The notes under the pieces are model-generated. The model was given only the letters and a program-made list of their open reading frames with translations, did no database searches and was not told the origin of the DNA. From Amoebophrya sp. A120 (Eukaryota > Protista > Dinoflagellata), in contig CAJINV010000005.1 in NCBI GenBank assembly GCA_905178155.1, forward strand, positions 6,125,207-6,189,206: a stretch of DNA of 64,000 nt. Direction: 5' to 3'. Within the stretch, counting starts at the first letter, position 1; each line of letters starts with the position of its first letter. A program made the translations under genes and the position numbers. This document shows positions 3,961 to 25,972 of this stretch, one piece after another.

Positions 3961-5121
3961 GCAGCTCGTGATCACAAGTGATGTGGATGTTGACCTCGAA
4001 GTACTACGCACCACGTTATTTTCACTCCCATGTCCTCGCCCGTGTCCCATCATGTCGCCCGGTCGCGACCGGGCCGGAATTTGATATGCGAAGATGAGAA
4101 TGAGCGTCTAGTTATTTCAACATAGCGCCAACATGATTGACGGCGTTGCTATCTAGTTTGATTTCAAGGAATGATTTTTACGTAAGTAACGCTAGCTACG
4201 TATGAGTCTAGGTTGTAATGATCCAAATCTGATAATCATACTCTGTTGCGACGAGGTTGTTCACCGCGAAGCTTATGCTTCACCTTTCCTGGCTTCTATC
4301 CTGTTCTTGGGTCGTCTTCGTTCTGCCCCAGGCCCAGCAGCGCGACGCCGACGTCCTCGCAGGAAGATCTTCCGCACCACAAAGTCTTCTTGGCAGGACG
4401 AGCAGGAATCAAGAGCCAGCTCCAGCTCCTCGGTTGACAAGTGCGAAGAGAACGGGCTCCAATTTTTCCTGGCTCCTGACGGCGCAGAGGACCTACAACT
4501 CCAACTGCTCGCTGTGACTCTCTAATATTTCACCTCGTGCACAAAGCAAAGCTGCGTGTACAACTAAGTACAGCTGCAACGACCACGATCTCCAACCGTA
4601 CTGCAGGATGTTCTTGAGGAAAAAATGCAGTCTCGAAATAATTGCCGTTTTCCAAATCGTCCGTTCTTGACTGGCTCACTCCCTTCGAGGACGAGTGGCA
4701 GGTCCTGGTTGACGACAAACGGCCGCAAAGTCCTCCTCGCGGTTGTGGTTTTTATCGTGCGATACAGCAGCAGTTGACGAACAAAGTTGTCGAGTGTAAA
4801 GATGGGGAGGTCCTCCGGGTGTCGTCGGTCGTGGGTGTGGAGTAGTAGAGTATGCGTATGGATATGGAAGATTATTGTTACAACTAAGAAATAAGCTTTC
4901 ACCTGATTTCTCTTCCCTAAAGCGCTTAGCAGCTAAGGCCTTTATGAGGATAGTAGTTCATCTTGGCTCAACATTCCGTGAATTTCTTATAAATTTGTTC
5001 CCTTGATGCTCCACCGCTATAATTTTTAGGCGGTCTTTTTCTTAGTGCCACGACGAGGATGAACAGCTATGTGAAGATCTTCTTTTGAAGGCGAACGATA
5101 AAAATTTGATGCTAAGTATAC

Positions 5122-8100
5122 CTGGTTCCGCCGGGTACAGCTGTCGTTTTTGTAGTGCGTTTTGCCATATCCTGTGCAAAAGCATCCTACTCGCACAATA
5201 TTATTGCATTTTACATCAAATTGAAATTTGCTCAACGTGAGGACAAAGTCATGCAGATTTCGCTATAGGAGAATTCTCCCCATGCGGTATTGCAATAATT
5301 GGTACGAGTAGCACACTTTTGCTGTATGCATATCCCAGCTAGAAATCGCGTACCCTGTCTTATCCGTGGGCGCCTTGCAGCCCAAGCGACAGCAATTTCC
5401 GTCTTGCTTACACTGCGTCACGCCATCGGCCCGATTGTTGCACCAATTTATGGAGTCATACGGCGTTTGGGGCGCTGTCCCGGCGTATGCATCGCAAATA
5501 TGTCTGGGTCTGGAAAGTAGATGCAAGGTTTGTCATGCTTGGCTAGCATGACTCTTAAGTCTGTCATGCGCGTGGTGACCGAAGCCCGCCACTTTTCTCT
5601 CATGCAGAAGCTCACTTTGTCATGCAGAATAGACAAGACTGTAGACTGTACCAAAACTTGTCACGCTCAGCAGTCAATTGGGGTTTTCTCCTCTTTCTCA
5701 ACCAGCATCACAAGTTTCCAGACCCAGACACGTTTGCATTTGATACGGCGGCATTGAGGAGCAGCCTATCCTGGAAATAGGCTTTGGAACTGCTGTATGC
5801 AATACAAATTTCCTGTAGACAACGCACAAACTGCATGACAAATTTTAGTACCAAGCTGGACAGCATGCCACTTGTCATGCTGAATAGGATTGGAAGAAAA
5901 GTTTGTCATGCAGAAACCACATTTGTACGTCGTGTGTGGGAATAAATTTACTGTGGATATGCTATCCTTGTACAAACAAGCCACGTGCTTGCACATCGGC
6001 CAACACCAGCGGTTCTCGTAATATTGCCCATCTCCCTTGTCGCTGGTCTCCCACAGGTGCCGCAGACCGGGTTCGTAGGCCTGCTGTCCGTCGTCGGTAG
6101 CGGGCACTATGCGGACGTGGTTCATATTGGCCGTGCAGGAAGCGCTATGAACCGCAAAAGCATAATTGCACTAGGAGTGATTGCAATACAAATTTTTAGC
6201 TCAGCATGACAAATCGAATTTGTCATGCTGATTGAGCTTGGAAAGAAGATTTGTCATGCATAATTTCGACAACTACCACTACGACGAGCACGACACTTTT
6301 ACAATGCATAAGCGCAGCGCTCGGCGTGCGGCGCCGGACAGGAGTGGTCATTCATCTCCGTACCACCCGTGCACTTACACTTCGGCACGCATATCGCAAG
6401 AAAAAACTGTTTCACTGTAAACTTGTAATGCAGAAAAGGTATCCGAGAAATGTTTCTCTTGCTACACATGCATAGAACATTGGATTTTTAGCTGTGTTTT
6501 CCCTTAGCAATCTCGCACGGCAAATTTTCTCTGTGATGTAGAACAAACTTGTGATGCACAACTTGCAAAATCCTTACAGTGAAACACTTTTTTCGTATGA
6601 TAACGCACCCGTCCGGTTCAATCGTGATGCGATTCTCGGGCCCGGTGCACCGGAGCCTGGGGGCGGTCTTCGTGACGAAATCCCCCGCGTTGCACTGAAA
6701 CTTGAAATTTGCAGCGTTGTAGTTCGTCAGATCGGTCGCCGATTTGAAGGCCGCGCCGCTTTCTGGGTACAGGCTAGGGTCCGACAGCAACTCCGTCCAG
6801 TTCGGGTATGAGAGTGCACGACTCCCCCTCCCCCTCATTTGTATTGCATGAAGAGCTGCAATACAAACACCAGCACACGTGGAGCCTGTACATGAAAAAT
6901 TCATGCACCTAGTGCAGTACTGTTTGGGCTTCTGGAATCTTGTCATGCAAACAGTGCCACAGGGAAGCGAAGCGAAGCACTTGGGTTTGGGGTTTTGCAT
7001 GACAAATGAGGGGGAGGGGGTGGAGTTGTGCATTGTCATATCGGGAAAACGTCAAACATAGCTTTCACCCAAAGATGTTCCGGCTCTTGGCAGCTGCGGA
7101 TACAACAGGTACTGACTATGACCTGCTCAAGCGCTACAATCTCAAACGTTACTTACAATAGAGTCGCGGTTTTGTATTGCATGATGAGCATGACAGACTC
7201 GGACAGCATTCCGCTTTCTGCAATACAAATTTCCCCAGATTGTGCTGCGGATTGGGACTCCCGAACTTATCAGCGCAGTCCTATGAGAGTTGGCTAGAAG
7301 ATAATGCACTTTTTGCAACACAAGTTCCAGATTCTATTGTAACGTTTGAGATTGTAAAAACACCTGAGCAGGTTATACTGACGTCCGCAGCATTCTGAAT
7401 GTCGCAGTGGTTCGTTTGACACTGCAGCGCCGAAGTCGGGTTTCGCTTTTGCAGGTACCCTGTTAAGCCACCGTGGCAGTCCAGCGCCGAGGCCGTGCAC
7501 GCCTCTTTCTGAATTGCAAAAATGTCTGGGTCTGGAGGATGAATGCAGATTTTTGTCATCCTGTTTTTGCATGACGCAAAATGTCGGTCATGGAAGCCCT
7601 AGCATCACAGATTTCGAGAAGCTTCCGCATTGCTTAATCCGCATGACAAATCCCCCATTTTGGTGACAGGAAGTGGGCACCTTTTGCTGCCTATGCATGA
7701 GAGATTTGTCTGTGCTGTGAAATGCGCATCACAAGTTCGCATTCTTCCAGACCCAGACACTTTTGCAATGCATACTCTTTACAGCCCTGCAACTTGATCA
7801 AGCCGCCCTCGCTTGGACACTGCATCTGCACCGTGCTCGAGACCCCCTGGGGCTGGTGCGATGTTGCACAGGAAAAAAAGTCATCGCTGACAGTGTGTAT
7901 GGATGTGTCAGGATCGAAATCGGCAAAATCGAAAAATTTGTGATGCGCAAAATGTAGGGCACTGAAGGCCTGTATTGGGGAGCAGGTAAATGAGACCGAT
8001 TGTAGGCCTGTTTAGGGGTATGCAATGTGCTGCCAGAGTAGCATGACAGGAGGAGTCTTCTTTGCCCAAAGAAACAGCATGACAGAATGGATTTCGGTGC

Positions 8101-11100
8101 TTCCGAAGTTTGTCATGCGCCACTTGGAAACTGAGGCTCCAACTGGCATCGATTTTGTGCATCACAAGTTTTTCGATTTTGTCGATTTCGATTCTGACAC
8201 ATCCATAGTGTGCCAGGTGGTCGTACTAGTAGGCCGCCCCCGATCGCCCGAGGCTTGCAGGATGGGCTTCCAAGTCTCGCGGTCTGTCGCAAGAGGCGCT
8301 TTGAATACGTATCCGTACAGCATTTCGGTCTTTGTCGTGCCCTCGGGATACCGGCACACCTGCTGACAGCAGTCGTTGTCGCGACACCCAGTGTCGCTCT
8401 GCGGCACGCGCGTGGTGCAGTAGCCGTTATCGGTCGGGTTTTTCGTTCGCATGTAGAAGGAGGTGGACCCGTGCCCGTCTCCCTGGTAGAACTCATTTTC
8501 GCAGTCGATCGAATCGCAGCTCGCCCAACAGCCGTCATTTATGGAGTTCTCAAATCAGTATACATTCTCAACTGTGTTAAATGCGAGAATGGAAAAAGTG
8601 AAAGGAGGCAGATTTTTGCGCCTTTTGCGTTACAGGCTTGGCGGGACGAATTCTAGTGCTATTTAGCGCATCGAGAAGTTGTCACGCAAAGAAGGCTTGA
8701 GGATCGTGTGAAGAGAGATAGTGTTTTTGCATGACAAACCATGTAACACCTGTCGAGAATGTAAGAACGTTTGAGAACGCCATATCATTTAGCCCGGTTT
8801 TGTACTGTGCGTCCTGTCCCGCCTATCCAAGAAAAAAACATTGTAGCTGTAACTTTTATTTTGGAGAAACAGCATTACAAATTTGTCTGGCATGACAGCA
8901 ATAACCTGTCGCGCGCAGATAGTACGTGAAAACGGCCTAGAATACACCTTGCGATGCATGCCAAGCATGACAGACGCAATCATCTTGCATGTTGCGCATC
9001 ACAAATTTACACTAACAACGTTTTTTTCTTGGACACCGCCCCTGCGCACGTGAGCGACGGATTCGGGCCGCGGTAGTCCGGGGTGTTGCACTGTATTGCG
9101 CTGCTATGAACTGCAAAAGCATCGCACACGCACTAGTATAAGTTGTATCACAAATTGGCTTAGCATTAGTGATAATGCGGATTTGCCTTAACACAAAGAT
9201 TTGTAATGCATATTAAATGCAATTAGTACGAGTACGCTACTTTTGCAGTGCATAGCTGCTCTTTACCCACCCGGGTGAGTGTCCAGGGTCCATGGCCGCG
9301 GATTGTAACGCACTTGACCAATTCACGACGTAGGACGCGTCCGTGCTGCTTGGCTCCTTGCAGCCCGCGTTACAACAGGTGTCGCGGTCCCCGGTCCCGC
9401 CACAAACAGTGCTCGAACACTGGCCGGGGGTGCCGTGCTTCACAAAGTACTTTCCGTGCTGTCCCACCGGAAAGGTCGCGCAGAAAACGCCCGTGCACGT
9501 TTGCGCGCAACAGGTATCGTGGTCGGTCAGGCTCCAGGTGTGGCCACCCGTGGAGAAATACCGGTTGGTTGTAGACGTGATGGGATCGTCGAACCAAGTG
9601 TCGGGACCGGCGAAAAGCGCCACGCCATTCAGTTTGATGCTGCTCAGACACAACCCGTCACTAGTGCTGTGGTCAATGTTTAACGACTGCACAAAGCTAC
9701 CCGCATACCCCATATTCACACTCGCGGTGCGCTCCTGATTTTTGTTGTTGAAGTTCAAATTTACTGAGAAGCCGTTTCCAATTTTGTCCTTAAGTTTGAC
9801 CACCAGATTTGCGCTTGATTATCAAGTGCAAAAATGTCTGGGTCTGGAAGAATCCAACTTGTCATGCTAAATCTGAAGCATGCAAAAATCTGTGTTGCAT
9901 AACGACCAAAAGTGGTCCAGTTTTCACCAAGTCGGGAGGGGGTTTCTCATGCAGAATAGGCATGAGAGAGATCGCACAGCACCTGTCATGCTAGGTCGTG
10001 CATTCCAGACCTCGTGGGCCATGGAAAAGCTGCATGACAAATCGCGCATTCTTCCAGACCCAGACATTTTTACATTCCATATTGATTGCGCGTTGTTGAT
10101 GTTGCAGGATTTTGCTGCGACGGAGAGGTTATCAAATGCAAAAGTGTCTGGTTCTGGAAGAATGCAAGCTTTCCCATGCATATTTCTCATGACCCATGAT
10201 GCCTGTAATGCATGACCCAGCATCGCAGACTTTTAGAGGGCTTCCTGATGCACCTTCCGCATGACAAATGCCCTGTCAGTCCGTGTAGCACAAATTGTGC
10301 CCCTCTTGTTGCTGGTCACGCAATACAGATTTTTGTAGCATCCAAATTCAGCAGCACAAGTTGCACCCTTCCAGACCCAGACATTTTTGCATTTGATAGA
10401 GGTTAGGACCTTCGAAGATTCTACAGTCCGCGGTCGCGCAGAGGAGGTGTGACCGTGACGGTTTATGAATATGTGCAAAAGCATTGTATCGTACTAGTAG
10501 TGCAAAAATCGCAATACAAATTACGTAGCCCCCCAGCATGAATTTGTCATGCTACTTTGACTTGGAAACAAGACGACTTGTCTTGCATGACTGCGATTAC
10601 AACTACGAGTGCGATACTTTTGCACGGGATACGCTTTCGGCGTGTACGACTGCCCGCAGTTGGTATCAAATGTAAAAATGTCTGGGTCTGGAAACTTGTG
10701 ATGCTGGGTGGCGTCTCATGATGAGGCTACAAATGCTGGCTCAGCATGACAAGTTTCTGAGTTCCTAGGTGTTGCCTATTCTGCATGACAAACTGCGCTT
10801 CTGCATCACAGAAAAACGCAGTTCTTGGGTAACGTGCATGACAGATTTAAGAGTCATGCCAGACAAGCATGACAAACATGAATTCTTCCAGACCCAGACA
10901 TTTCTACAGTTGATAGTTGGTCACCGCGTCGCAACTCTGCCGACAGCACTGGTCCACGTCGCGGACACGTTCCGAGGTTGAAACATAGTACTTCATCGGC
11001 GTGCAGAGATTGTCACTACAAAGCAAGTTCTGCAGGGCGGGATCTCCAATCGGTTTCACGCGACTAAACATGGGAAGCAGCACGCAACTGTGATAGTCGT

Positions 11101-14100
11101 CCGTGCGTTTCATGTAGTCAGAGTGAAACCAGTCCTCGATGGTGCCCACGTTGTTTAGCGCCTTGCATTCCGGCGGGTCGGTTTGCGCAATCTGTTTGGT
11201 ACTCTTGGTCAAGCGACAAGACGCACCCCGCCGTCCGGTGGGGGAGTTGCATTTGCTGCAATACCCGCTTTCGTTGCAGGTGCTCCAACTTTCCATCGGC
11301 CTCGTTCCACAGCCCGAGCACACAGGGGTCTCGATTGGCGCATAATCGTCGGAGCACATTTGTTTCGCGGTGGGGTGCCGGCACGTCATTCTACAGCACC
11401 TCTGCTCGTCGGCTGCTTGTGCGGCGCTGGCGGTCAACGTTTATCAACTGTAAAAATGTCTGGGTCTGGAAGCACAAGAATGCAAGATTTGTCATGCATA
11501 TTTCTCATGACCCATGATGTCTGTAATGCATGGCCTAGCATGACAGATTCTGTGCGATCTCTCTCATGCCTACCCTGCATAGGAGACTCCCTCCCGACTT
11601 GGCCAAAACTGGACGACTTTTTGCAATCATGCAACACAGATTTTTGCATGCTTCAGATTTAGCATGTCATTCTTCCAGACCCAGATGACATTTTTACGTT
11701 TGATAACGTTCCCGCTTCGGCAAAGCCGCCGACCCGGCACTTGTGCCGCGAGCAGTACTGGTTTGGAATGACAGCAAATATCCTATGTAAAAACGTCCCC
11801 ACCCCATCGTCTAGACAAATCCACAAGCTTTGGCTGTTTCGCATGACAAATTTGGACGCGTAGTGTAGTGCTGTTTCAGCTAGTTCAGCAGCATTACAGA
11901 TCTTATTCTCTCATGCTGATTGGAGCATGACAAATTTCAAAACAGCATTAGAAAATGCTTCTCATGGGGCCCCGCATGAGAAACATTTTAAGCATGCAGA
12001 TTTGCATGACAACTATGGTGTGGGGACGTTTTTACACAGGATAGCAAACCCCCCTGCTTCAAGAGGGCACGCGTTTGCCAGCGTGCATTTCTCATGACAG
12101 TGGAACAGCGCAACTTTCCCCTCCTTGCTTGCGCACTGCCCCGAAGGGCTCTTCCCAGGCGGCAAGGTGTGCGTGGAGGAGACACAGGATACATAAGTTG
12201 CCACCGACTTCCAGTTGCCGTCCGGGGGGATATCATATGCAAAAATGTCTGGGTCTGGGAGATTGCGAGATTTGTCATGCTAGTCTGGCATGACTTTTAG
12301 ATCTGTCATGGACGCTTCCAAAGAGCCCCATTTTGCTGTCATGCAGAAACGCAGTTTGCCGTGCAGAATAAGCAACACCTGTAAGCTCAAAAGCGTGTCA
12401 TGCTGAGCCAGCATCTGTGGCCTCTTCATGATACGCCACCCAGCATCACAAGTGTCCAGACCCAGACACTTTTACAATCCATAGGGGAGAGCCAGCGCTA
12501 ATTTCTTCCAATTTTGCCCGGCGTTCAGTTGGTACCCATGTTTATCTCCCTGGGCAACTTCGCAGCCTTTCTCGCAGCAGGTGTTGAGGTCGCTGTTGCC
12601 GCAACTGTACAATCCTGTGCAAAAGTATCGTACTCGTATTGCAATCATGCGTCTTTATCTCAAGGTAAATCCGCATTACAAATTTTACTTCTCATGCTGA
12701 GGAAATTTGTAATGCATTTATACGAGTACGATACTTTTGCAGTTCATATGTACCCACCGCACTTGGGGGAGCCAGACTTGACAAAGTACGCGCCATCCGC
12801 GCCTATCAAATGCAAAAGTGTCTGGGTCTGGAAACTTGTGATGCTGGGTGGCGTCTCATGATGAGGCTACAAATGCTGGCTCAGCATGACAAGTTTCGGA
12901 GCTCCTATGTGTTGCCCATTCTGCATGACAAACTGCACTTCTGCATCACAGGAAAACGGAGCTCTTGGGTAACGTGCAGGTGCATGACAGATTTAAGAGT
13001 CATGCCAGACAAGCATGACAAACGTGAATTCTTCCAGACCCAGACATTTTTACATTTGATAGCGCCCCACGTGTAGCCATTGCAGAACGCTTGGTCACAG
13101 CGCTTCACTATGCATTGCAAATATCGATCTGGGTCTGGAAGACTGCCAGGTTTGTGATGCTTATTCTGCATCACGACCCACGGAGCCTGTAATGCATGAC
13201 CTAGCATCACAGATTTTTAGAGGGCTTCCTGATGGTTATTCCGCATGAGAAATGCCTTCTCCACGGGACGTAGCACAAACTGGACTCATCTTGCTGGTCA
13301 TGAGGCAATACAGATCTTCATCTTTTTACAAGGCAAAGACAGCATCACAAGTTGGATCCTTCCAGACGCCCAGGGTGGATATTTGCAGTTGATATTCACA
13401 CAGCACCGCTGGTTGTCGCTGCTGGAACAGCTCTTACTGAGGCACGAGATGTCCGAGGCGCTGGGACTGCGCGCGTAGCCCGCGGGGCAGCTGTGGTCGT
13501 CGCACATCTCGTTTTCCACGCAGCAAATGGCGCGGTCGTTCTCGTTGCACGTTGCCCCCTGGCAGTAATGTGGCGCTCTCAACTGTTACATTCTCATCTG
13601 TTACATCATTTGTGATGCAACAATGGGAAGAATGAAAGGGCGGGCCTTGCGCGTCTTGCATGACAGATTTGGCACAGACTATCAGCCTGTTTGGCCTTTC
13701 CAGAATTTGTCATGCGGAGCAGCTTAATGGTGTAGATGATAATGGTACTTTTGCATGACAAATCATGCAACAGTTGAGAATGAATGTAACAGTTGAGAAC
13801 GCCATAAGTAAGAGTTACCGTTCTGGTTTGTGTACTTCTTGCCGTTTTTGTCGCCGCACCCAAAGGTCTTGCATTGTGCGTTTCGGTTGCAACACAAGGC
13901 GAGGTCTCTGGAATCGCTGCACGCGTTCGCCCAGCAGCGATAATTGGCCCGCGCGGCGTCGTAATGCCATCCGGCGCTGTCACATCGGCCGTGGTCACTG
14001 TTGCCCTGAGAGCATTTCGGAGTATGTTGGCAACACCTCTCTTTGTCGCTGCTGTGATCACAGTAGTGATTCGTGCAGAGGGTCTTCGCTATGAACTGCA

Positions 14101-17100
14101 AAAGTATCGCATACGCATTCGTATAAATGCATGACAAAAACAAAATCCCTCAGCATGAGAAATAAAATTTGTCTTTCGGATTTGCCTTGAGAAAAAAATT
14201 TGTAATGCATAATACGCGTACGATACTTTTGCACAGGATATCCGCCGAGTCCTTATTCATCCACCCGCGGCCCCACTTGTTGCTACAGCCGTCCGGGTTA
14301 CTACCCCCCTGGTCGTGAGTGTATTTGCATTTGTTGTTTGCGTGGCAGCAGGCATCTCGATCGCCGCTGTTGCTCAAGTTGCAGTTTCCTGGTGCCTGCG
14401 TGGCGCAGTTCTTGCTTGACGGGGTACTTTTCTTCCGGTACCCCCGCGGGCAGTTGCCGGCCTCGGAACACTTCTCGTAGCACCCACTAAGCACCAGGTT
14501 GGCGTTTGCCGAAGGACACCGGTATTTGGCCGTTCCGCGGTACTTGCTGGAACACTGAAAAAGGACACTGTTGGTCCCCGTGGTTCTATCCACGAACAAA
14601 ACTGTGTTAGTGTACTTAATTCTCTTTGGCCGACAGCATCACAAATTTGCTACACATTGTGATGCGTGGCTTGTAAGGTTGGTTCCTAAACCCTGAAACC
14701 TAAACAAAACCCTTACCCTTTCTGGATCGATCTTGAACAGCAGATGAGGGTGGTGGCTGGATCGAAGGTGAGACGGTCGCGACGGTAGCCATCCCGTGCC
14801 GGCGACGGTTGGCCATGCGTGGCTTGTAAGGGAAAACATCACACATGAAAAGAGGACTCCATGTTTGTCTGGCATGACAGGTGTAACACTGTTGCATGTT
14901 TTGCATGACAGATTTACACGACTAACACAGTTTTTTTCTTGCATAGGTTCGTGCCGCGCTTCCCGGAAAGGCGGCCGTGGACTGCCCTGGGTCGACCAGT
15001 TTAGTCCAGAAGGTGTTTTTGTAAAATTATCCTGAAAAAAGACATCCCCGACCCATAGTCAACAAGATGGGAAATCTGCTAGACAAACCAACAAGCTTTG
15101 GGTGTTGCGCATGACAAGTTTGGCCTCGTAGCGTAATACTGTTTTAGGTAGTTCAGAAGCATCACGACAGATCTAGCACGTCATGCTGATTGGAGCATCA
15201 CAAGTTCCGAAATTATACCAATCGAAAATGCTTCTGATGGGGCTCCGCATGAGAAACATTCTCAGCATGCGGCTTTGCATTACAGCTACGGGGTAGGGAC
15301 GTTTTTACTCAAGATAAAGTTCCCGCATTGTTCCCGATGAAATAGGCAAAGCCAGAGGCAGAGAAGGAGCTTATCCTGTGCAAAAGTATCGTACTGGTAG
15401 TATTAATTATAATTTACAATCATGCAATTACAAAATTTTATCCCAAGGTAAAACAGCTTCACAAATTCCATTTCTTGTCATGCTGAGCTAATTTGTAATG
15501 CGATTACCACTAGTACGATGCTTGTGCAATTCATAGAGCTTGGGATCTTGCACTTTTGCAAGCAGCAGGTTCCCCGGTCGCCGTTCCCGCTGCAGGAGGT
15601 CGCGGACGCGCACTGGCTGTTCACTTTTCCAGGGTCCGCAAAGTAGTTGCTGCCGCAGTTCATGAGCGCACAGGTCGCGTGGCAGTTCCGGAGCTGCAGC
15701 GAATAGCCGGCGCCCGCGCATTTGTACTCGGGTCCGCTCCCCAGGGACTTGAACCCCGTGCCGCACTGTAGCCCTCCGCCCTGCCACCCCTGCCGCGCAA
15801 AGCCGTCGTCCCCCGGTCGCGCGGCGTGCGTTTGGTATGAAAGTACACAACTCCCCCTCGTTCTCTTTTCTCATGCAAAATCCCAAATCCAATTGCAATT
15901 GCTGCCTTCTTGTCCTTGTGGCATTGTTTGCATGACAGATTCCGGAAGCCCAAACAGTAAGTACTACACTTCGCTCATGAACTTGTCATGCGCAGTCTGG
16001 ATGTGTGCTGGTGTTTGTATTGCAGTCCATAGCATACATATGACTATGAGGGAAGGTTGTGCACTCTCATATTTGGCCCCGGTGCGTCAAATGGGTCCAG
16101 GAGGACACGCCGGACCCTGATTTCCACGCGTACCCTATCCTGTGTAAAAACGTCCCCACCCCATAGTCAAGATGGGGACTTTGCAACACAAACCTAGAAG
16201 TTTTGGGACTCGTCACGCATCACAAGTGCCAGTCCGTAGTGTAGTGCAGGCTAGCAAGGACACACGCATCACAAATCCATCTGCTTATCCTGGTTACAGC
16301 ATTACAAATGCCAAAACACGAATAGAAACGCCTCGCATGGAGATACGCATCACAAATGTTCCTGTCATTGCAAATCTGCATCACAACTCTGGGGTGGGGA
16401 CGTTTTTACAAATGATATACCCCGTGCTCGAGTTAGGGCCAGTGCACTTCTGGACGCAGCACGTGTCGCGGTCCTCCTCATCGTCGCACTGGTGCGAGGA
16501 GCATGCCGCGGCCCAGTTATGCTGTGCAAAAGTATCGTACTCGTAGTAATCGAAGTCATGCATTACAAATCTCCTTCTTAACCTAAATCCGCATTACAAA
16601 TTCCATTTTTCATGCTGAGGGAATTTGTCATGCGATTTCTACTAGTACGATGCTTTTGCATTTCATACCAGTCTGTCGACGGCCAATCGGACCCGCACAT
16701 CCCGTCGTTGGTGCGCATCAGCGTTTGGCTTCGGCACGCGTCGGTCATTTTCAGATAGTGGCGGTCGCCCGCGGTGCGACGGTCAATGAAGCCGCTCGTC
16801 GGAAAGGCGCCCTTTTTCGTCCAGGTGTAGCCGGAGTTCCCCTGATTATGAACGAGATGCGTGCATTTATGACTCCCGCTTTCCCGTTTCGCGCAATTGT
16901 CGCGGCCCTTGCTGAACGAACCAGCCACCCCGCCATGAGGAATATATCAAATGTAAAAATGTCTGGGTCTGGAAGATTGGAACTTGTGATGCTAACTTTG
17001 GACTCTAGAAAAATCTGTATTGCATGACCAGCAAGAGGAGTCTAGTTTGTGCTACGCCGCGGGGAGGGCGTTTGTCATGCGGAGTAGGGATCAGGAAGCC

Positions 17101-20100
17101 AGCTCAAAATCTGTGATGCGCGGTCGTGCATTACAGACATCCTGGGTCATTGAAAACATGCATGACAAATCTCAGAATCTTCCAGACCCAGACATTTTTA
17201 CATTTGATAGAATATCTGACCCGCTTTTGTCGTAATACATTTTCAAAACGCACTGGTTAAAATTGGCCGTGTTATGGAAGCGTCATGATTGAAATCGTCA
17301 AAGTTGAAATGCTTTGCCATGCAAAAAATGCAGCCCACAAAGTGCCTGTCTTGCGGAGTAGGCAAGTGACGCAGATTGTAAGCCTGTTGAGGGGTAGCAA
17401 CTGAGCTGCTAAAATAGCACGACAGGAGCAGAAGTCTTCTTTGACGAAACAGCATGACAACCTGGATTTCGGCTCTACCCAGATTTGTCATGCGCCACTT
17501 CGAAACTGGGTTACAACTGGCATCCATTTTATGCATGGCAAATCATTTCAACTTTGTCGATTTCAAACCTGACGCTTCCATACGTGTCGCACCGCTCGTA
17601 GCAGCCGCGGAGAACGAGCGACCCGGATATCCTGTGCAAAAGTATCGCACTCGTATGAATGCATTACAAATTTCCCCAGCATGAGAAATGAAATTTGTCA
17701 TGTGGATTTACATGAAGAAGCAAATTTGTAATGCATGAATGCAATTACTACGAGTGCGATACTTTTGCAATGCATATCCGAGCTCGCCGGGCAATTGTAG
17801 GAGGGCGTGTCGGAGCGGTGCGTCAGGTGGCATATCGTACAGAAAAAAGCTGGCACTTGTAAAATGCAAAAAATGAATGGCAGAAAATGGTGTCATGGGC
17901 GAGCCCAGCATAGAGTGCTTTTAGGGTATGCAGTACAGATTTTTCTGTGTTGTGTAGTTTCAGTTTGTTATTTTTGCATTACAACATGTACTATGTAGCC
18001 TGCCTGCTTGTTTCTGTGGGATATGGCAGAGGAGTTGCGAAGAGGTCTGCCACCCGTCCCCGGGCGCTGCCCGGTCACTTTGCCCGCACTGGTAGAACCT
18101 CACGTAGGCCCGGGGCTGCACCACGGTCGTCAGGGCGGTGCCCCCGTAGTTGCTTTGTTTCTCGTAGCGGTAGCCGTACTTTGCGGCGGTACTCGGGTCG
18201 CTACACTCGGCGACCTCGCAGCACAGGTCCCGATCGGCCGTATTGCCAGCAAGGTTGCACCTGGGCCGTCCGTCGCACTGTGATGTGAACGTGGTGGTCC
18301 TTTTTTTGTAGCAGCTGGGGCAGTATCCACACTGCAAATATGTCTTGATGAGTCATCTCGATCTAGAAAAATGAAAACTTGTAATGATGGAGCTTCCTTT
18401 GCAGGGCTAGAAGTTCAGCCACAAGCATATACAAATTTCAGCTGAGTCGCCTTTTCATCATGCGTAGCGGGCATTTATTTTTACAACTGTGTTTCTAATT
18501 TCAAATGACGAAAGAGGTCACGCTGTAATTGTTAATCATGCAACACAGATTTTGCTGATTGTTGTAATCAAAATCATGCAGCAAAGATGATTTAAGCGCA
18601 TGTGTATCAGTTCAACTGGTCCCGCGGTTCAACAATGTGCCTACCAGTTCAATACCGCCCCGGGGCCTAAATATCCTAGAACAAACAGGGCATTTGATAT
18701 GTTCGACGCCAAAAGAATATGCAGGTAGGGGAAGTTGTAGGGGGGGCGTTCCTGACCCAAAGGCACGCTCCTGATCTCTCTGGTACTTACTCGACCCGGG
18801 GGGTCAGGTATCACCTGACCCCCGGTTCGGGTCTGTACCTGCAATGCCGCAGCGCCGTCGTTTTAGATGGTGCTGCGGCACAGCATCGCACACCGTGACT
18901 GATGGGCGCCACAGGTCTCAAGCCCAAATCTACTGTCACTACAGAAAAGAGTAGCCATGTTGACTGCGATCGGCCCTAGCGTTCGACCGCTTTCTGTTTG
19001 AAACCAGCACCGCGCGCACAGCTTCGGTCTTCGTGCGCCCATTGATCGGAAGCAGCGTCCCTAAATCCTACGACCGCCAGCCGTCCCACCGTAAACAATA
19101 GTCGCGCAGCGCCTCGCGCCTCACAAACCAAAATCGCGCGCGCGCGCGCCAAAAGACAAGACCTTGCGGGGCTTGTTGTGCCTCCTCGCGGGCCTTTTTT
19201 TTCGCGCTCTCTTTTTGTTTATATTTTATTCTTTGGCGGCTTTTTTACTACTTTTTTTTTGCCCGCCTCGGGCGCTTCGTTTTTTCTCATGTCGGCACTG
19301 CAGCCGCACACGTCGGCGCAGCACTGCTTGTGCGGAGTGAGTGTTGGCCCGACCTTCTCCCGTGCGCATACTTTTTGCGACATATGGCGCCCGCAAGATA
19401 TGCTCTGTAGCTCATCGGGATTCTTTTCTCACGTTGCCTGCTCTTTTTTCGGGGTTTGGCACGTGCACTACGTATGGTTCTGTTCTTTTTCGTATGCCCT
19501 GAACCTTCACGAACTAGTTCGTGAACTGGGGTACACTCTCGAACCGATTCACATGCAAACCAAGCGTATACAGAACTTCATCCAGCGTCTTTCCAGAATG
19601 TGAATGAACAACTTCCACCAGACATATTTGCATTGGATAGGCAGTTATCAAATGTAAAAATGTCTGGGTCTGGAAGAATCCGAACTTGTGATGCTGCATT
19701 TGGATTCTAAAAAAATCTGTACTGCATGACCAGCAAAGGGAATGCAATTTTGGCTACGCGGAGAGGGCATTTGTCATGCGGAATAGGTATCACGAAGCCC
19801 TCAAAAAGTCTGTGATGCTAGGGCATGCATCACAGACATCGTGGCCCATGCAAAACGTGCATGACAAGCTTCAGAATCTTCCAGACCCAGACATATTTGC
19901 ATTTCATAGCAGTCTGTATAGGGGTCGTCGCACTCTCCGAACTCAGGGTTTTTGCAGTGCGTGAGCTATCCAAAATAAAGACGCTCCCACCTCAGTAGAG
20001 TCGTCATGCAAAAAATCTGCATGCGTAAAATGCTTCCCATGCGGAGCCGCCCCATGAGCAGCATTCATCGTCTTTTTTAGTTGGGTTTTCAAATTTGTGA

Positions 20101-23100
20101 TGCTCGAATCAGCATGCGGGGCTAGACCTGTGAAGATGCCGCTGCACTCGCTCACCAGCATCGGACTTCGACTACCTTGCGTCGAGCCGAAATAACTTTT
20201 CATGCGCAACAGCCAAAGCTTGTTGATTTGTCTAGCAGATGTCCCACCTTGACTCGTCTGGGGTGGGGACGACGTTTCTGCGCAGGAGGATATGAGCTCC
20301 TGATTGTATGAACTGCAAAAGCATGATCGTACTCGTATAAATGCATTACAAATTTCCTCAGCATGAGAGAGAAAATTTGTAATGCGGATTTACCTTGAGA
20401 TAAAGATTTATAATGCATGATTGCAATACGAGTACGATACTTTTGCACAGGATAGATTGGGGTTCGGCACCATTTCCGGGCACGCGTTGTACAGTGTGCA
20501 AGTCATCGAGTAGTAATCATTATGGGAGTGTCAGAATTGAAATCGACAAAGTTGAAATAATTTGTGATGCAGAAAACGGATACCAGTCGGAAGCCCTATT
20601 TCCAAGCGGTGCATGACAAATTTAAGTAGAACCTAAATCCAGTTTGTCATGCTGTTTGGTTAAGGGCGACGTCTTTTGTCATGCTACTTTAGCAGTTCTA
20701 TTTCTACCCCTCAACAGGCTTACAATCTGCCTCCCTTGCATCCTCTGCAATAGAGACAATGTCTGCGTTGCATTTTACGCATTGCAAACTATTTCAACTT
20801 TGACGATTTCAATCCTGACACATCCATAATCATCTCTGGTTGCGTAGAACTTGCAGTACCGATCCTTTTTGCAGTTTTCTTTGCATTCCCACCAAGCCCA
20901 GGACGTATGGCCTGCTTGCAAATCCCAGTAATCGAAGTCGTAGGTGTGCTGTGCTTCGTGGCATATGGTCCCGAACCCCGAACACCCGGAACTGGAATGA
21001 CAGAAGTGATCATAACTGTACTTGGGCAAGCGTGGCGGATTGTAGCCGGACCAAGTCTTTGGCGTGCAGTCTGAGGCGTAGTAATGCCCCTGACCACTAT
21101 ACATAGGTCCTTGCTTGCATCTTTTGTTCTGAATCGTGGCGTCTACCCAACAAGACCGGGCCATGGTTTTCTTCGTTCTCGTTGTGCTTGATGTAGTCCC
21201 GGTGTTCAACAATACTTCGCCTGGTGTCGTGCCGTCGGGCAGGTGGAGCTGTTCCGAGCTTTCTACTTCTGTTTTCTGTTCCTCTCGCCGCCGCTCGAGC
21301 CGGGCTAAAAGTCCCGCGGACACGTTGAGGTGCGAAAAATTCATGGTGGCAAGATTGTCTGCGCTCATTATTTTATCGCAAGAAAAAATGACTGCTCCAT
21401 TGTAAATAACTTGTGACGCGGGGGGGGAGCAGGACCCAACAACACAGAAGCTTTAGCTTTTGGCATCTGCGAGACATGTAAGACAGCGAATTTTCTGGTG
21501 CGGTTTCCCTTAGGAATATTAAACTCGCATGGACAATTTTATTTGTCATGTAGAACAAACTTGCTGATGTGATGCAAAAGTTGCAAAATCCTATACAGTG
21601 AAACACTTTTTTCGTGTGATAGATCTTTTCCCATTTCTCGACTTCCGCCCGGCGAATCGCTCGCCTGTCCTCCGCGGCTTTTTTCGGAACTGTCGGCGCC
21701 ACCTGCTCCTCGGATGGCGGTTTTATTCTACTTGTCGATGATGTAGTTGAGCTTGAAGTTTGTTGTCGTTCCTCCAGCCCTGGTCCTAGTGCTAGGCCCG
21801 TGTTAGTACTCTTTATTTCGCCGGGGCGGCGGCTCGTCTTTTCCTCGTCCTCGTCGTGGTCATCTCTTCCTCGAAGGATTCTTGCTGTGTTGTATCGTAT
21901 TTAAAAACACCCCCACACCAAAATTGTCATGCAAATCTGCATGCTGAGAATGTCCCTCATGCGGAGCCCCATGAGAAGCATTTTCTATTCGCGTTTTTAG
22001 ATTTGTCATGCTTCAATCAGCATGGTATACTGGATCTGTGATGCTGCTGAACTACCTCGAACAGCACTAGACTACGAGTCCAAATCTGTCATGCAAAACA
22101 GCCAAAGCTTGTGGATTTGTCTAGCCGATTTCCCATCTTGACTATGGGGTGGGGACGTTTTTACATAGGATATGTTGGTGCTGTTGTTTACCGGAACTGC
22201 TGGAACATCAAGCTTATTTTCGCCTAGTACTACATTTTGGTCCTCGTCGACGTCCTTGGGAAGTAGTTCTTCAAACGACCTCTTGTAGTCCTCCACAACC
22301 TCGCCCTGCTGCTCAGTTGTTTTTTCCTCCTTCTTCGTCCCCTCAGAAGTGGTCGTTCCCTGGAGGTCCTCGCCGCCTTGATGTTGATGCTGGTGCACAT
22401 CTAAAAAAACATCCTCGGAAATAAAATCCTCCTCCACGACCTCCTGCTGCTCCTCTACTTCTCGTCGCATCACCTGTTGCCTCACTGCGGCGGCGTAGAA
22501 ATGAAAAACGGTCGGGCTCCTGGCGCTATTCCGCGTAGTACTGCTCGTGGTTGATGTTGATGCCCCCGTGGCTCTGCTTCTACTCCTAGATCTAGACCAT
22601 GCATCATAGTAGGAGCTGCTGTTGTCCGCGTCCCACTCCAAACTAGCTCTCCTCCAGGCGTCAGCAGCTGAAGAGGGCGCCGTCGTCCCGCGAGGCGTTC
22701 TTCCCGGCAGGTCGAAGAACGCGTTCCGTGTTAGAGGCGCATAAAAGTCGTCGTGATCGCATGTAGTGGTCCAACGACTCCTGACCCACTGCTCTCCATC
22801 CTGATCAACTTCTGCTCGCAGAAGGGTCTTGAGGACAATCAAGGGAACGATCGAAAATAGGAGGAGCTCCTGCAGGTGGAGGGCCAAAAACCCCAACGAT
22901 GAACAGGCGTAGAGCGACTTCACTTTCACCAGCCACGCCCACGGGTTTATCAAAAGTAAAAATGTCTGGGTCTGGAAACTTGTGATGCTGGGTGGCGTCT
23001 CATGATGAGGCTATAAATGCTGGCTCAGCATGACAAGTTTCTGAGCTCCTAGGTGTTGCCTATTCTGCATGACAAACTGCGCTTCTGCATCACAGAAAAA

Positions 23101-23558
23101 CGGAGCTCTTGGGTAACGTGCATGACAGATTTAAGAATCATGCCAGACAAGCATGACAAACATGAATTCTTCCAGAACCAGACCCAGACATTTTTACATT
23201 TGATAGGGTTAAAAGTTTTACGATTCGCAAGAACTACGGTGGTCTCCCCGCCGCTGCGAGAGGACCAATTTTTGTGGACCGCTATTTTCCTCGTCTTCGC
23301 ACCGGTGCTGGTGGTTTTAATTTCATCGCGACAAGGAGAGCAGCTCAGTTCGCAGCTCCGCTTATTTTCATCGTCTCCATTCTTTCCCAGCAAACCGCTT
23401 TCGCTTTCTGTCCCAAGAAACCGCTTTCTCTTCCTGCGAGATCTCGTGCAGAACAAGAGCGTGCAGCTGGTCGCGCTGCCCACGCAGCATAAATTCTTCC
23501 GCTTTATTTTCCGCCAGCTTCTCCCTCTGCAGGAGGAGCCGAATGCGGAAAAAAACAT
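5122..23558 (-). CDS. Gene 1: giant multi-exon Cys-rich repeat secreted/surface protein (N-terminal hydrophobic anchor, low-complexity linker, PAN/apple-like and PLAT-like segments, C..C..D..CC repeats, long W..AL....LYP repeats); split by 42 introners; 3' end unresolved
   Basis: Hand-splicing (element plus one TSD removed) joins ORF-track fragments in frame: KTFNP|WAWL, VNNSTN|TARI, WEKI|MSAD, TRDD|YYSMTC, PNQEL|THCKNP, YTDC|P|SCYKKR. The last visible exon ends ..QLYPAEP G|GTATAC at 5121. Domain names are resemblance only. Confidence 0.8.
5168..5332. mobile_element. Introner family B
   Basis: TSD tgcca/tccca. Confidence 0.85.
5486..5745. mobile_element. Introner family A (tatcaaatgtaaaaatgtctgggtctggaa TIR)
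   Basis: TSD cggcg/cggcg. Confidence 0.9.
5767..5959. mobile_element. Degenerate introner family J
   Basis: TAT..ATA ends; similar to 45330-45488; TSD not recognisable and exact junction unresolved. Confidence 0.55.
6146..6310. mobile_element. Introner family B
   Basis: TSD agcgc/agcgc. Confidence 0.9.
6392..6602. mobile_element. Introner family C (tatcgcaagaaaaaactg.ttcactgtaaa TIR)
   Basis: TSD acgca/acgca. Confidence 0.9.
6807..7040. mobile_element. Introner family E (tatgagagtgcac.actccccctccccctcatttgt TIR)
   Basis: TSD tcggg/tcggg. Confidence 0.9.
7117..7377. mobile_element. Introner family F (variant)
   Basis: TSD ctgac/ctgac. Confidence 0.85.
7508..7774. mobile_element. Introner family A (left end TCT)
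   Basis: TSD ctctt/ctctt. Confidence 0.85.
7898..8207. mobile_element. Introner family D
   Basis: TSD gtgtg/gtgtg. Confidence 0.9.
8540..8784. mobile_element. Introner family F
   Basis: TSD tcatt/tcatt. Confidence 0.9.
8824..9035. mobile_element. Introner family I (right end ACA)
   Basis: TSD ccgcc/ccgcc. Confidence 0.85.
9105..9254. mobile_element. Introner family B
   Basis: TSD gctgc/gctgc. Confidence 0.9.
9820..10081. mobile_element. Introner family A
   Basis: TSD ttgat/ttgat. Confidence 0.9.
10130..10398. mobile_element. Introner family A
   Basis: TSD gaggt/gaggt. Confidence 0.9.
10464..10631. mobile_element. Introner family B
   Basis: TSD cggtt/cgctt. Confidence 0.85.
10664..10915. 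mobile_element. Introner family A (young subfamily)
   Basis: TSD gttgg/gttgg. Confidence 0.92.
11442..11705. mobile_element. Introner family A
   Basis: TSD acgtt/acgtt. Confidence 0.9.
11779..12043. mobile_element. Introner family G (tatcct.tgtaaaaacgtccccacccc TIR)
   Basis: TSD gcaaa/gcaaa. Confidence 0.9.
12231..12483. mobile_element. Introner family A
   Basis: TSD gggga/gggga. Confidence 0.9.
12611..12748. mobile_element. Introner family B (left end AAT)
   Basis: TSD tgtac/tgtac. Confidence 0.85.
12804..13061. mobile_element. Introner family A (young subfamily)
   Basis: TSD gcgcc/gcgcc. Confidence 0.92.
13109..13394. mobile_element. Introner family A
   Basis: TSD ttcac/ttcac. Confidence 0.9.
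13569..13806. mobile_element. Introner family F (left end TGT)
   Basis: TSD agtaa/agtaa. Confidence 0.85.
14090..14240. mobile_element. Introner family B
   Basis: TSD ttcgc/tccgc. Confidence 0.85.
14587..14945. mobile_element. Introner family I with nested insertion
   Basis: TSD ggttc/ggttc. Confidence 0.85.
14679..14814. mobile_element. 136-bp insertion with a telomere-like end, nested in an introner
   Basis: 17-bp TSD atgcgtggcttgtaagg; one end reads cctaaaccctgaaacctaaac. Confidence 0.65.
15028..15316. mobile_element. Introner family G
   Basis: TSD aaaat/aagtt (degenerate). Confidence 0.8.
15372..15535. mobile_element. Introner family B
   Basis: TSD gagct/gagct. Confidence 0.9.
15836..16071. 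mobile_element. Introner family E
   Basis: TSD tttgg/tttgg. Confidence 0.9.
16136..16417. mobile_element. Introner family G
   Basis: TSD taccc/taccc. Confidence 0.9.
16518..16667. mobile_element. Introner family B
   Basis: TSD ccagt/ccagt. Confidence 0.9.
16945..17209. mobile_element. Introner family A
   Basis: TSD gaata/gaata. Confidence 0.9.
17273..17582. mobile_element. Introner family D
   Basis: TSD cgtgt/cgtgt. Confidence 0.9.
17628..17776. mobile_element. Introner family B
   Basis: TSD ccgga/tccga. Confidence 0.8.
17833..18023. mobile_element. Introner family K (..gtttctgtgggata end)
   Basis: TSD tggca/tggca. Confidence 0.85.
18324..19639. mobile_element. Old family-A introner enlarged by a nested TIR element
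   Basis: tatccacactgcaaatatgtc .. gacatatttgcattggata; TSD ggcag/ggcag. Confidence 0.8.
18598..19556. mobile_element. Older TIR element nested in an introner
   Basis: Imperfect TIR gcatgtgtatcagttc / gaaccgattcacatgc; degenerate 9-bp flanks gatttaagc/aaaccaagc. Confidence 0.5.
19646..19908. mobile_element. Introner family A
   Basis: TSD gcagt/gcagt, overlapping the neighbour's TSD. Confidence 0.9.
19967..20292. mobile_element. Introner family G
   Basis: TSD tgagc/tgagc. Confidence 0.85.
20307..20454. mobile_element. Introner family B
   Basis: TSD gattg/gattg. Confidence 0.9.
20521..20828. mobile_element. Introner family D
   Basis: TSD atcat/atcat. Confidence 0.9.
21374..21621. mobile_element. 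Introner family C
   Basis: TSD tattt/gatct (both differences synonymous on the - strand). Confidence 0.8.
21893..22172. mobile_element. Introner family G
   Basis: TSD tgttg/tgttg. Confidence 0.9.
22948..23205. mobile_element. Introner family A (young subfamily)
   Basis: TSD gggtt/gggtt. Confidence 0.92.
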
Positions 23559-25972
23559 GCTTGTCGCGGCACAATGGGGGGGCAGGAGACGAGGTGGAGG
23601 TCGTGCACGATGCTAGGAGACTAAACTGAAGTTAAAAAAGGCTAAAGCCAGTGGTCGTAAAAGTAGTTTTAGTTTTTGGTTGAAAGACGTGCACCGGAGG
23701 AGTGGTAGTTAAGTACTCCTCTAGGTCGCGGTGGATAGTCAACCCAAATCCCTCTTGGACGATGAAGAGGTGAAAATGTAAAAGCCATGCATTTTTTGTT
23801 TTTGAAAGTTACCGTACTAAATAGAAATAATTTTTGCAGACAAAGAAAAAACTCAAGTATTCAGTACGTGAAAAACGGGAAGCAATAGGTAGAAATGGGC
23901 AGCACACATATAAATGACGCCGGAAATTCGCCAGCGACCTTCGGAGTAGAGAGTTGCACTTTCTTGATTGATGTAAACGTAACTCTAGTGAAAGATATGA
24001 AAGAAAAAAAACAAGTTGAAGTTGAATACCGTATATGAAATTGTGCGCGTCTACTAGGTCTGTAATTGTAAAAATGATTCAGCGAGAACTTTGCCGCTCG
24101 TGTCGAGTTATATTACTTTCTATTTTGCTATTAAGGTGGCACTTTGTCCACGGCTGCTCACCTGCCTGTTACATACTAAATAACTAAACTTTGCTGTATA
24201 AAAATGATAGTACTTTGTTTGGTTTTTCAGAAGATTTGTTCATCTTATTTCTAGAGCTATTCTTGATGATACAGATACGATTAAGGAAAGCGAAAGCGAC
24301 GAAAGCGGCCGCACAAGCCTCCTTAGACTTGTAGTTGAAGTTGTTCCGTTTCTGGTTGATGTGGGACGAGTACCACTACCACAGCGTCCGTCCTCGAAGA
24401 TGACAGTCGTTGTAGCAGCTTCTCTCCTATTTCATTTTCATCTTCGCCGGAGTTGTATGTACGATAATCACGCCACTAGGCAAGTAGAGTTCGTTGCAGG
24501 GCGAGATGAACAGGTGCTGTTCACAATAACAACGAATGACGAGATGAAGGGCGAAGATACAACTTATCATACTGCTGTCGGAGGAAGTGCTGCCGCCACC
24601 ATTCTGCTTTTTGCACAATAAGAATGATTTTTTTTTTAATCAACGATAAGAATAAGTATAAGATCGATGCCGCTGCAAAAAATAACCTAGCAAGAATGCA
24701 CTTTATTGAGCTTTTGAGTTGTTCATCCGCGAGGCAGAAAAATTCGATCGATTTTTCCATGAGAGTGAGCTGAACCAATGGAAAATAGCGGCAGGAATTT
24801 CCGGACAGCCCAGCACAACTTCATTGACGTTGTTCATCATGATGTCCTGCTGCGCTTTTTGTTCTAGATCTTCAACAATCTGGAGGCTCCCCAATGAAAA
24901 TGTTGGAAATAACAAGTGCCTGACGCGACAACAATGAATCAGTATCAGACCGGCACCGGCTACGAAAACAGAAAGACGCAATAAATAACATGAAAAATCT
25001 TCCTGCGGCGGCGCCACTAGGAAAAAGGACGTCGCAAGAACTGTTCGGCGGCTCACGTTTGGTTCTATATCACCTGAAAAGACTGACGATGACGAACAAT
25101 TTCAGTCGGCTTGCTGTCGTGTCAGATTTCCCCTCAGCGAGGAGGCGCAGCTTCCGGCAACGAATGACCTGCATCTCGTCGTCACAGCCGCCGACGAGAA
25201 AAGCGTCGCTTTCCTCTTGATTTTTTATTCTTTCATTCATTTGTCTTTGCGTTGTTTCGAATTAAAAACGAATTCATAGAAATCCAAAGAGCGCAAAAGC
25301 AGAACATGATTTTCATCAGGTGCATTTTTTCTGACATCTCGAACGACCTCAACACAATTATCAATTTGGAACTCTGCTCGGACTATACATTTACATCGTT
25401 TATAACTACCTTAGCACAAGAAATCAAACTGTGACAAGAACATCGACGACGGACCAAGACGACGTACATAAGACACCAGCAGGTGGTGCTGGAATACAAC
25501 AATAATTCAAACTGAAATTCGTATAAAGTTACATCTTTTTCTTTCGTTCTGCTGCACGGTAAGAAGATGAATAAGAAATGCGTACTATATTGCTCTACTT
25601 GTAAAAAAACCTACTTGCGACCACCACTATTTAATGGATCGCGACCACAACCACATTGAAGTAAATCTCCCTGCTGTCGAAAACAAAATGCTTTTCGTTT
25701 ACATTTTGTTCTTTTTGCTCAAAAACAAACTAGAATTGAAAAAAATCACAACGGGTAGCTCCTCGAACTTCTAGCCAAGAAGGTTGACATGAAGATGCTA
25801 CAGCTGCCATGCGTATAGCTTTTTCAAAGGGCGCCAGCTGTTGTAGTTCAGAATCAGATATGTTGTTGATCTTTTCTTCCTATACGGAAGAGCGATATTT
25901 TTGAATTGCGCCGTACTTACTCATTTGCAGCCTGCCAGGGGTTTGTTCTATGTCAACGTTGGTGCTCTACGT

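Follow-up and report, generated by a model that had tools for sequence, protein, structure and literature searches.

Amoebophrya A120 is a marine parasite with transposon-derived introns that lack normal splice signals. According to the text of one publication (PMC7789003, Farhat et al. 2021), more than 60% of its introns are non-canonical and no U1 snRNA is detectable; the removal of introns without GT-AG borders under these circumstances is an open question there and in the text of a second publication (PMC11282704). The introners described in PMC7789003 carry inverted repeats and direct repeats of 3-5 nt, are removed from transcripts, and have an end motif of TAT, seven variable bases and a run of A, with splice sites that are, in the wording of the text, variable relative to the hairpin and of unknown border position. 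Its main text makes no mention of a micro-exon, small exon or short exon. Exons of a single nucleotide have been described in other lineages, as the parts of the respective papers covered here relate. One lies between spliceosomal introns of APC11 in Arabidopsis (PMC4674806) and another between spliceosomal introns of CYP621A in Fusarium (PMC12940212); these exons are needed for the reading frame, and sequential removal of the introns on either side has been proposed. In the placozoan cox1 gene, a one-base exon is found between group I introns, both intermediates having been seen (PMC5436844), and in Ophiostoma between the group II introns rnl-576/577 (PMC12308204). The nonconventional introns of euglenids have ends that pair, lack GT-AG and are cut at fixed spacers from a paired motif (PMC12501133, PMC11282704, PMC6221363, in the parts covered). 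A search of mostly open literature listed no publication that deals with one-base exons or with a fixed splice register in Amoebophrya; neither was present in the covered text of PMC12130899, PMC11282704, PMC11453091, PMC9860276 or bioRxiv 2024.09.05.611473, and PMC13326754 gave matches in its reference list only.

The window (the whole 64,000-nucleotide stretch of DNA that was analysed) contains two adjacent elements of this kind, A (1316 nt, 18324..19639) and B (263 nt, 19646..19908), neither of which was assigned a strand. Both begin with TAT and end with ATA in imperfect inverted repeats, and the only sequence between them is the six-nucleotide spacer GGCAGT (19640..19645, plus strand). 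By direct reading of the plus strand, the outer copy of the target site duplication (TSD) of A is GGCAG (18319..18323) and that of B is GCAGT (19909..19913); the inner copies occupy 19640-19644 for A and 19641-19645 for B, so the two five-nucleotide TSDs are offset by one base. The coordinates and letters of this arrangement are as the first-pass annotation had given them. A nested (stwintron) arrangement was considered and rejected, because neither element sits inside the other and both ends of each are complete. Element A was recognized by its ends, five-nucleotide repeat and predicted self-pairing, and B by its ends, five-nucleotide repeat and blastn matches to a repeated family (17 of 49 others in the comparison, in both orientations, the best at 88.6% over the full length). 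Element A has only short blastn matches within the window; its depth in the DNA-like sequencing run X5, 109-155 compared with about 27 in unique DNA (about 4-6 times), hints that it is present in several copies.

A scan for TAT...ATA elements whose ends match and which are flanked by a five-nucleotide direct repeat (0 or 1 mismatch allowed) found 71 in the window and 0 in each of five block shuffles, and a looser scan gave further ends. The profile of the 142 ends consists of TAT, which was imposed by the search, seven variable nucleotides and a run of A at positions 11-14, which was not imposed. This is the published motif of A120 introners (PMC7789003, in the text covered); thus, the elements are already known as a class, with which A and B have in common the inverted repeats, the direct repeats (here of 5 nt), the non-canonical borders and the removal from transcripts. 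An Rfam scan of 18000-21000 returned a single chance-level match (E 0.6) and no group I or group II match. The TAT ends may resemble those of IS3EU transposons, but such a relationship is not claimed here. Element A exceeds the usual element length about fivefold; inside it are an imperfect inverted repeat (near 18782-18839) and a 20-nucleotide palindrome (19506-19525). Other unusually long elements, possibly composite or nested, are located at 50827-51492 (666 nt) and 54010-54601 (592 nt).

Elements A and B lie in a minus-strand gene for a cysteine-rich protein (approximate limits 4900..23400), which was delineated from its reading frame and two annotated proteins and has 42 introner introns. 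Two exons of the window translate with 100% identity to these proteins, P0001 (923 aa) and P0002 (1408 aa), whose source names the organism as Amoebophrya sp. A120. Removal of the 42 elements with exactly 5 nt each produces a single continuous frame of 2385 aa that covers both, which suggests that one gene has been divided in the public annotation. No Pfam family was found for P0001 at E 0.1. The protein contains YTDCPSCYKKR and PNQELT, the two junction peptides that had been predicted in the first-pass annotation for the A/B locus and for a neighbouring micro-exon.

The removal of A and B was also observed in an assembled contig of 1488 nt from run X1, in which 18319 is joined to 19909 with five letters fitting either side, and the predicted junction YTDCPSCYKKR is encoded there as it is in P0001; this junction is carried by one contig at depth 7, from a run taken as RNA by guess. 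Two further joints of this contig connect 19967 with 20455, across three intervening letters, and 20513 with 20827; in all, five consecutive elements are missing from it, and its listed exon pieces contain 0 other letters. The exon downstream of A (18025..18319, minus strand) corresponds to the X1 piece 18024-18319, which has 0 other letters and matches P0001; the upstream exon of 53 nt (19910..19962, minus strand) is defined by the X1 contig and the 42-element model. Runs X1, X2 and X4, all from one sample, are RNA-like. They have no cover in the bin 18817-19483 inside A, where X5 has a depth of 109, and a depth of 0 to 1.2 at 24153-24819, where X5 has 27. Cover in X5 is flat between genes, where X1, X2 and X4 are nearly without cover; X5 contigs cross the exon-element borders, and X5 lacks the joints 26234 and 27108 that are common to the other three. 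In the declared RNA runs X9-X11, reads fell on repeat parts only and none on exons, which weighs neither way. No joint was found for elements 32957, 37303 and 37957 among those listed.

Where the two TSD copies of an element differ, the product reveals which of them was retained, and the position of the cuts was deduced from such elements. With the 42-element model compared to P0001 and P0002, retention of four nucleotides of the upstream copy and one of the downstream copy (register 4/1) gave 0 mismatches, compared with 1 for register 5/0, 2 for 3/2, and 4 for 2/3 or lower. The annotated proteins indicate that the part of the upstream copy kept is at least 4 nt at elements 5168 and 14090, at least 3 nt at 15028 and 10464, and at most 4 nt at 17628. 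In the RNA-like contigs it is 2 to 4 nt at 21374, at least 3 nt at 31530 and 35690, and at least 1 nt at 28078. The bound of 2-4 nt at 21374 (21374..21621, no strand assigned), where the TSD is mismatched twice (TATTT / GATCT), was deduced from ends of the X1 contig pieces at 21369 and 21371. Element 34924, which fits with at least 4 nt kept, was excluded from the count because its joint is also present in X5. Thus, a single register with cuts 1 nt before TAT and 4 nt after ATA fits all informative elements, each of which supplies a half-bound on the assumption of one rule for all, with the upper bound coming from 17628 and 21374 only. The gene models of A120 were built from transcript alignments, according to the text of PMC7789003, and the proteins are therefore possibly not independent of the contigs.

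The length removed was that of the elements plus 5 nt each in five of five spans computed (11 elements) and in one span checked by hand (4 elements), a constancy that is equally what selection would leave. Across 52 elements there was no preferred first or last dinucleotide except for the T of TAT, no preference in the last two bases, and no purine rule at TSD position 5 (A18, G11, T7, C16). Four introns of P0002, at 13569-13806, 12611-12748, 8824-9035 and 7508-7774, differ from TAT or ATA by a single substitution, yet they too fit the annotated protein at plus 5, so that an intact triplet at both ends is not a strict requirement. The register tracks the direction of the transcript, not the orientation of the element (14090 versus 35690, one clean case of opposite orientation), which points to a process at the RNA level.

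Applied to the A/B locus, the 4/1 register would place intron B at 19909 to 19642 (268 nt) and intron A at 19640 to 18320 (1321 nt), both on the minus strand. Both would start with CT and end with GC or TG, GT...AG being absent. Base 18319 would be at once the last base of the downstream TSD copy of A and the first base of the downstream exon, and between the introns there would remain an exon of one nucleotide (19641..19641, minus strand; C on the transcript strand), which is masked in mature RNA. A one-step skip of A, spacer and B at this register causes a frameshift, with a stop about 60 codons later; the separate excision of A and B, leaving base 19641 as a one-base exon, is therefore the best reading and probably the correct one. 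The earlier claim of a net contribution of one nucleotide holds given that A and B are cut in the same register, as the other elements support, although the sequence by itself would allow the spacer to contribute anywhere from 0 to 6 nt. The related claim, that skipping the base would shift the frame, is correct at a fixed register; if one cut moves by one base, base 19641 is dispensable and a single skip yields an identical, in-frame mRNA.

The product of two excisions is in fact, letter for letter, that of one excision of 1589 nt with six equivalent cut points. The cDNA junction that had been suggested as a check was found as predicted, but sequencing of the mature junction cannot separate removal in two steps from removal in one, the product being the same, and aligners collapse introner pairs of such spacing into one intron, as happened here with the five letters that fit both sides. 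It could thus be proposed that A, spacer and B leave together as one 1589-nt intron, without a one-base exon. The 5' end of B would pair with the 3' end of A, the inner ends would form a fold-back between themselves, and one cut would be shifted by a base with the assistance of the shared repeat. The ends of A and B are related, the inner hairpin over the spacer (the 3' end of B with the 5' end of A) has a predicted stability of -22.5 kcal/mol in isolation, and acceptor spacers in Euglena tolerate a change of one nucleotide in either direction at reduced efficiency (PMC12501133, in the part covered). Against this, the locus would be the sole case of removal of an element plus 4 in a gene where the 42-element plus-5 model fits both proteins exactly. 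In the predicted fold of the 1681-nucleotide pre-mRNA, the expected number of end pairs (30 nt) is 26.3 within B and 24.7 within A, compared with 0.0 for both cross pairings of A with B, and the predicted outer duplex at 35 nt (-23.2 kcal/mol) is weaker than the self duplexes (-42.3 and -31.8 kcal/mol). Joint removal as a single intron is accordingly considered improbable.

The neighbouring elements C and D argue in the same direction. Element C (326 nt, 19967..20292, TSD TGAGC, weak terminal repeats) was placed by the looser scan and the X1 joint 19967 to 20455, and element D (148 nt, 20307..20454, TSD GATTG), a member of a repeated family, by the scan and blastn; neither was assigned a strand. 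Between them lies the second micro-exon of the first-pass annotation (9 nt, 20294..20302, minus strand), which was borne out by the letters of the X1 joint and by PNQELT in P0001, its borders following from the register. At least 3 of its nucleotides can have no other source, given the three letters between the sides of the X1 joint. The micro-exon is kept in the X1 contig although its skipping would stay in frame, so here, where nonsense-mediated decay could not have hidden a skip, C and D were handled separately and were not skipped as a unit; this control consists of one contig, and the two elements have unlike ends.

A second alternative accepts two excisions but makes their order obligatory, one removal rebuilding the flank for the other, or has the cuts set by pairing of the direct repeats. 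Co-transcriptional folding would let B be completed and paired before the 5' end of A exists, and a preferred order is plausible. In the unspliced RNA, however, A and B already have complete TSDs and ends, so the order is free in principle, and elements with two TSD mismatches (21374, 17628 and 15028) are removed correctly, which indicates that repeat pairing is not needed. Both forms of this alternative were rejected as very unlikely. The earlier proposal of ordered excision likewise found no support: at the 4/1 register either order would yield the same product, and no intermediate with only A or only B removed is among the joints listed, the contigs being of a kind that drops rare forms. 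In the least credible alternative, the joined sequence would come from DNA (an allele without the elements, a paralog, a retrocopy or the result of transposase excision); this reading draws on the guessed RNA status of X1, on the presence of the joint 34918 to 35074 in X5 and on the fact that element-free DNA copies can exist, but is opposed by a contig lacking five consecutive elements with unaltered exon pieces, by the run-specific cover inside A and at 24153-24819, by the continuity of X5 through exon-element borders and by an asymmetric register that follows the transcript.

For the preferred reading, separate excision of A and B, a mechanism may be proposed. The terminal inverted repeats and TSDs suggest that A and B, as non-autonomous elements, were inserted by a DNA transposase with a five-nucleotide staggered cut. 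Folding predicts that in the transcript the ends of each element would pair with each other, not between elements, and cuts would then fall 1 nt upstream of TAT and 4 nt downstream of ATA regardless of the flanking letters, removing one TSD's worth of sequence; the total of plus 5 is observed, and where the cuts fall was worked out from other elements with mismatched TSDs. The spacer would supply 4 nt to the tail of intron B, 1 nt to the exon and 1 nt to the head of intron A, and because it would be shared in this way, the cuts are probably sequential. After the first of them, base 19641 would be merely part of a long exon. The mRNA would be the same for either order, with removal of B first being the likelier, as B is transcribed earlier, is short and is predicted to be more stably paired. 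The machinery probably measures from the terminal-repeat hairpin, and the default candidate for the catalyst would be a remodelled spliceosome without U1 (cf. the text of PMC7789003). The earlier suggestion of structure-guided excision fits these data, in that the cuts keep a constant distance to the terminal repeats, no dinucleotide is preferred and the elements are predicted to self-fold. A bolder proposal, offered tentatively and with the balance of probability somewhat against it, is that the ruler by which A120 splices tens of thousands of transposon introns is blind to sequence, reading only the TAT...ATA hairpin and cutting 1 nt ahead of it and 4 nt beyond it, with a catalyst that is non-spliceosomal or deeply rebuilt and whose precision would suffice to free adjoining hairpins on both sides of one base; any new insertion would then be a perfect intron, even at one base from its neighbour, and one-base and zero-base exons would form a genome-wide class.

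The one-base exon, which is probably a genuine one between two known introners, is not new in itself. The introns of APC11 and CYP621A are ordinary spliceosomal introns, whereas those at the A/B locus are transposons with terminal inverted repeats and no GT-AG, and their TSDs mask the base that is kept. The earlier argument that a one-nucleotide exon strains exon definition had already been made for APC11 (PMC4674806, in the text covered) and is therefore not special to this locus. The cox1 and rnl cases are similar in that a mobile intron lies one base from another and excision is structure-guided, but those introns are mitochondrial ribozymes, whereas A and B are nuclear, resemble DNA transposons and match neither group I nor group II in Rfam. 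The elements work like the hairpin-and-spacer introns of euglenids, with ends that pair and cuts at fixed distances, but are outside that class and in an unrelated lineage; the covered texts give euglenid introns a CAG/CTG motif with spacers of 3 nt and 5-6 nt and exons that start with a purine, compared with TAT/ATA and spacers of 1 and 4 nt in A120. Excision as full-length circles, with no lariat, is a further trait of the euglenid class.

Of greater use than the one-base exon is the fixed register. The text of PMC7789003 speaks of variable borders, on which its figures may show more, whereas a single 4/1 register was obtained here. It allows an exact prediction of the first and last base of every intron, which is a prerequisite for seeking lariats, circles or end chemistry, and it means that any insertion restores the coding sequence. 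The A/B locus itself is a natural stress test, since removal in one step and in two steps predicts different intermediates and excised RNAs. The one-base offset is not improbable: under an exponential model with a mean of 206 nt, a set of 50 internal exons would include one or more no longer than 1 nt with a probability of about 0.3, so that one such exon among 50 is unremarkable. For the whole of A120, a rough estimate from 66,565 introns at a density of 1.42 per kb of coding sequence puts the number of one-base exons expected at random on the order of 100. Among the internal exons at 5168-31812, those of 26 nt or less number 2 of 50 compared with 6.0 expected (P 0.05), and exons of 10-26 nt are absent; this scarcity of short exons may reflect insertion spacing or selection.

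Related sequence was detected by tblastn at 37.6-53.1 kb, which suggests, on sequence similarity, a local gene family; a protein search directed at the elements at 37-41 kb gave nothing among 22 candidates. The joints 33690 to 34817 (with 95 letters between) and 34918 to 35074 occur both in X5 and in the RNA-like runs, loose ends being seen at 35135, and a second genomic copy without element 34924 is probably behind the X5 joints at 33690-35135. If real, this copy would provide an empty site from which the insertion could be dated and its TSD polarised.
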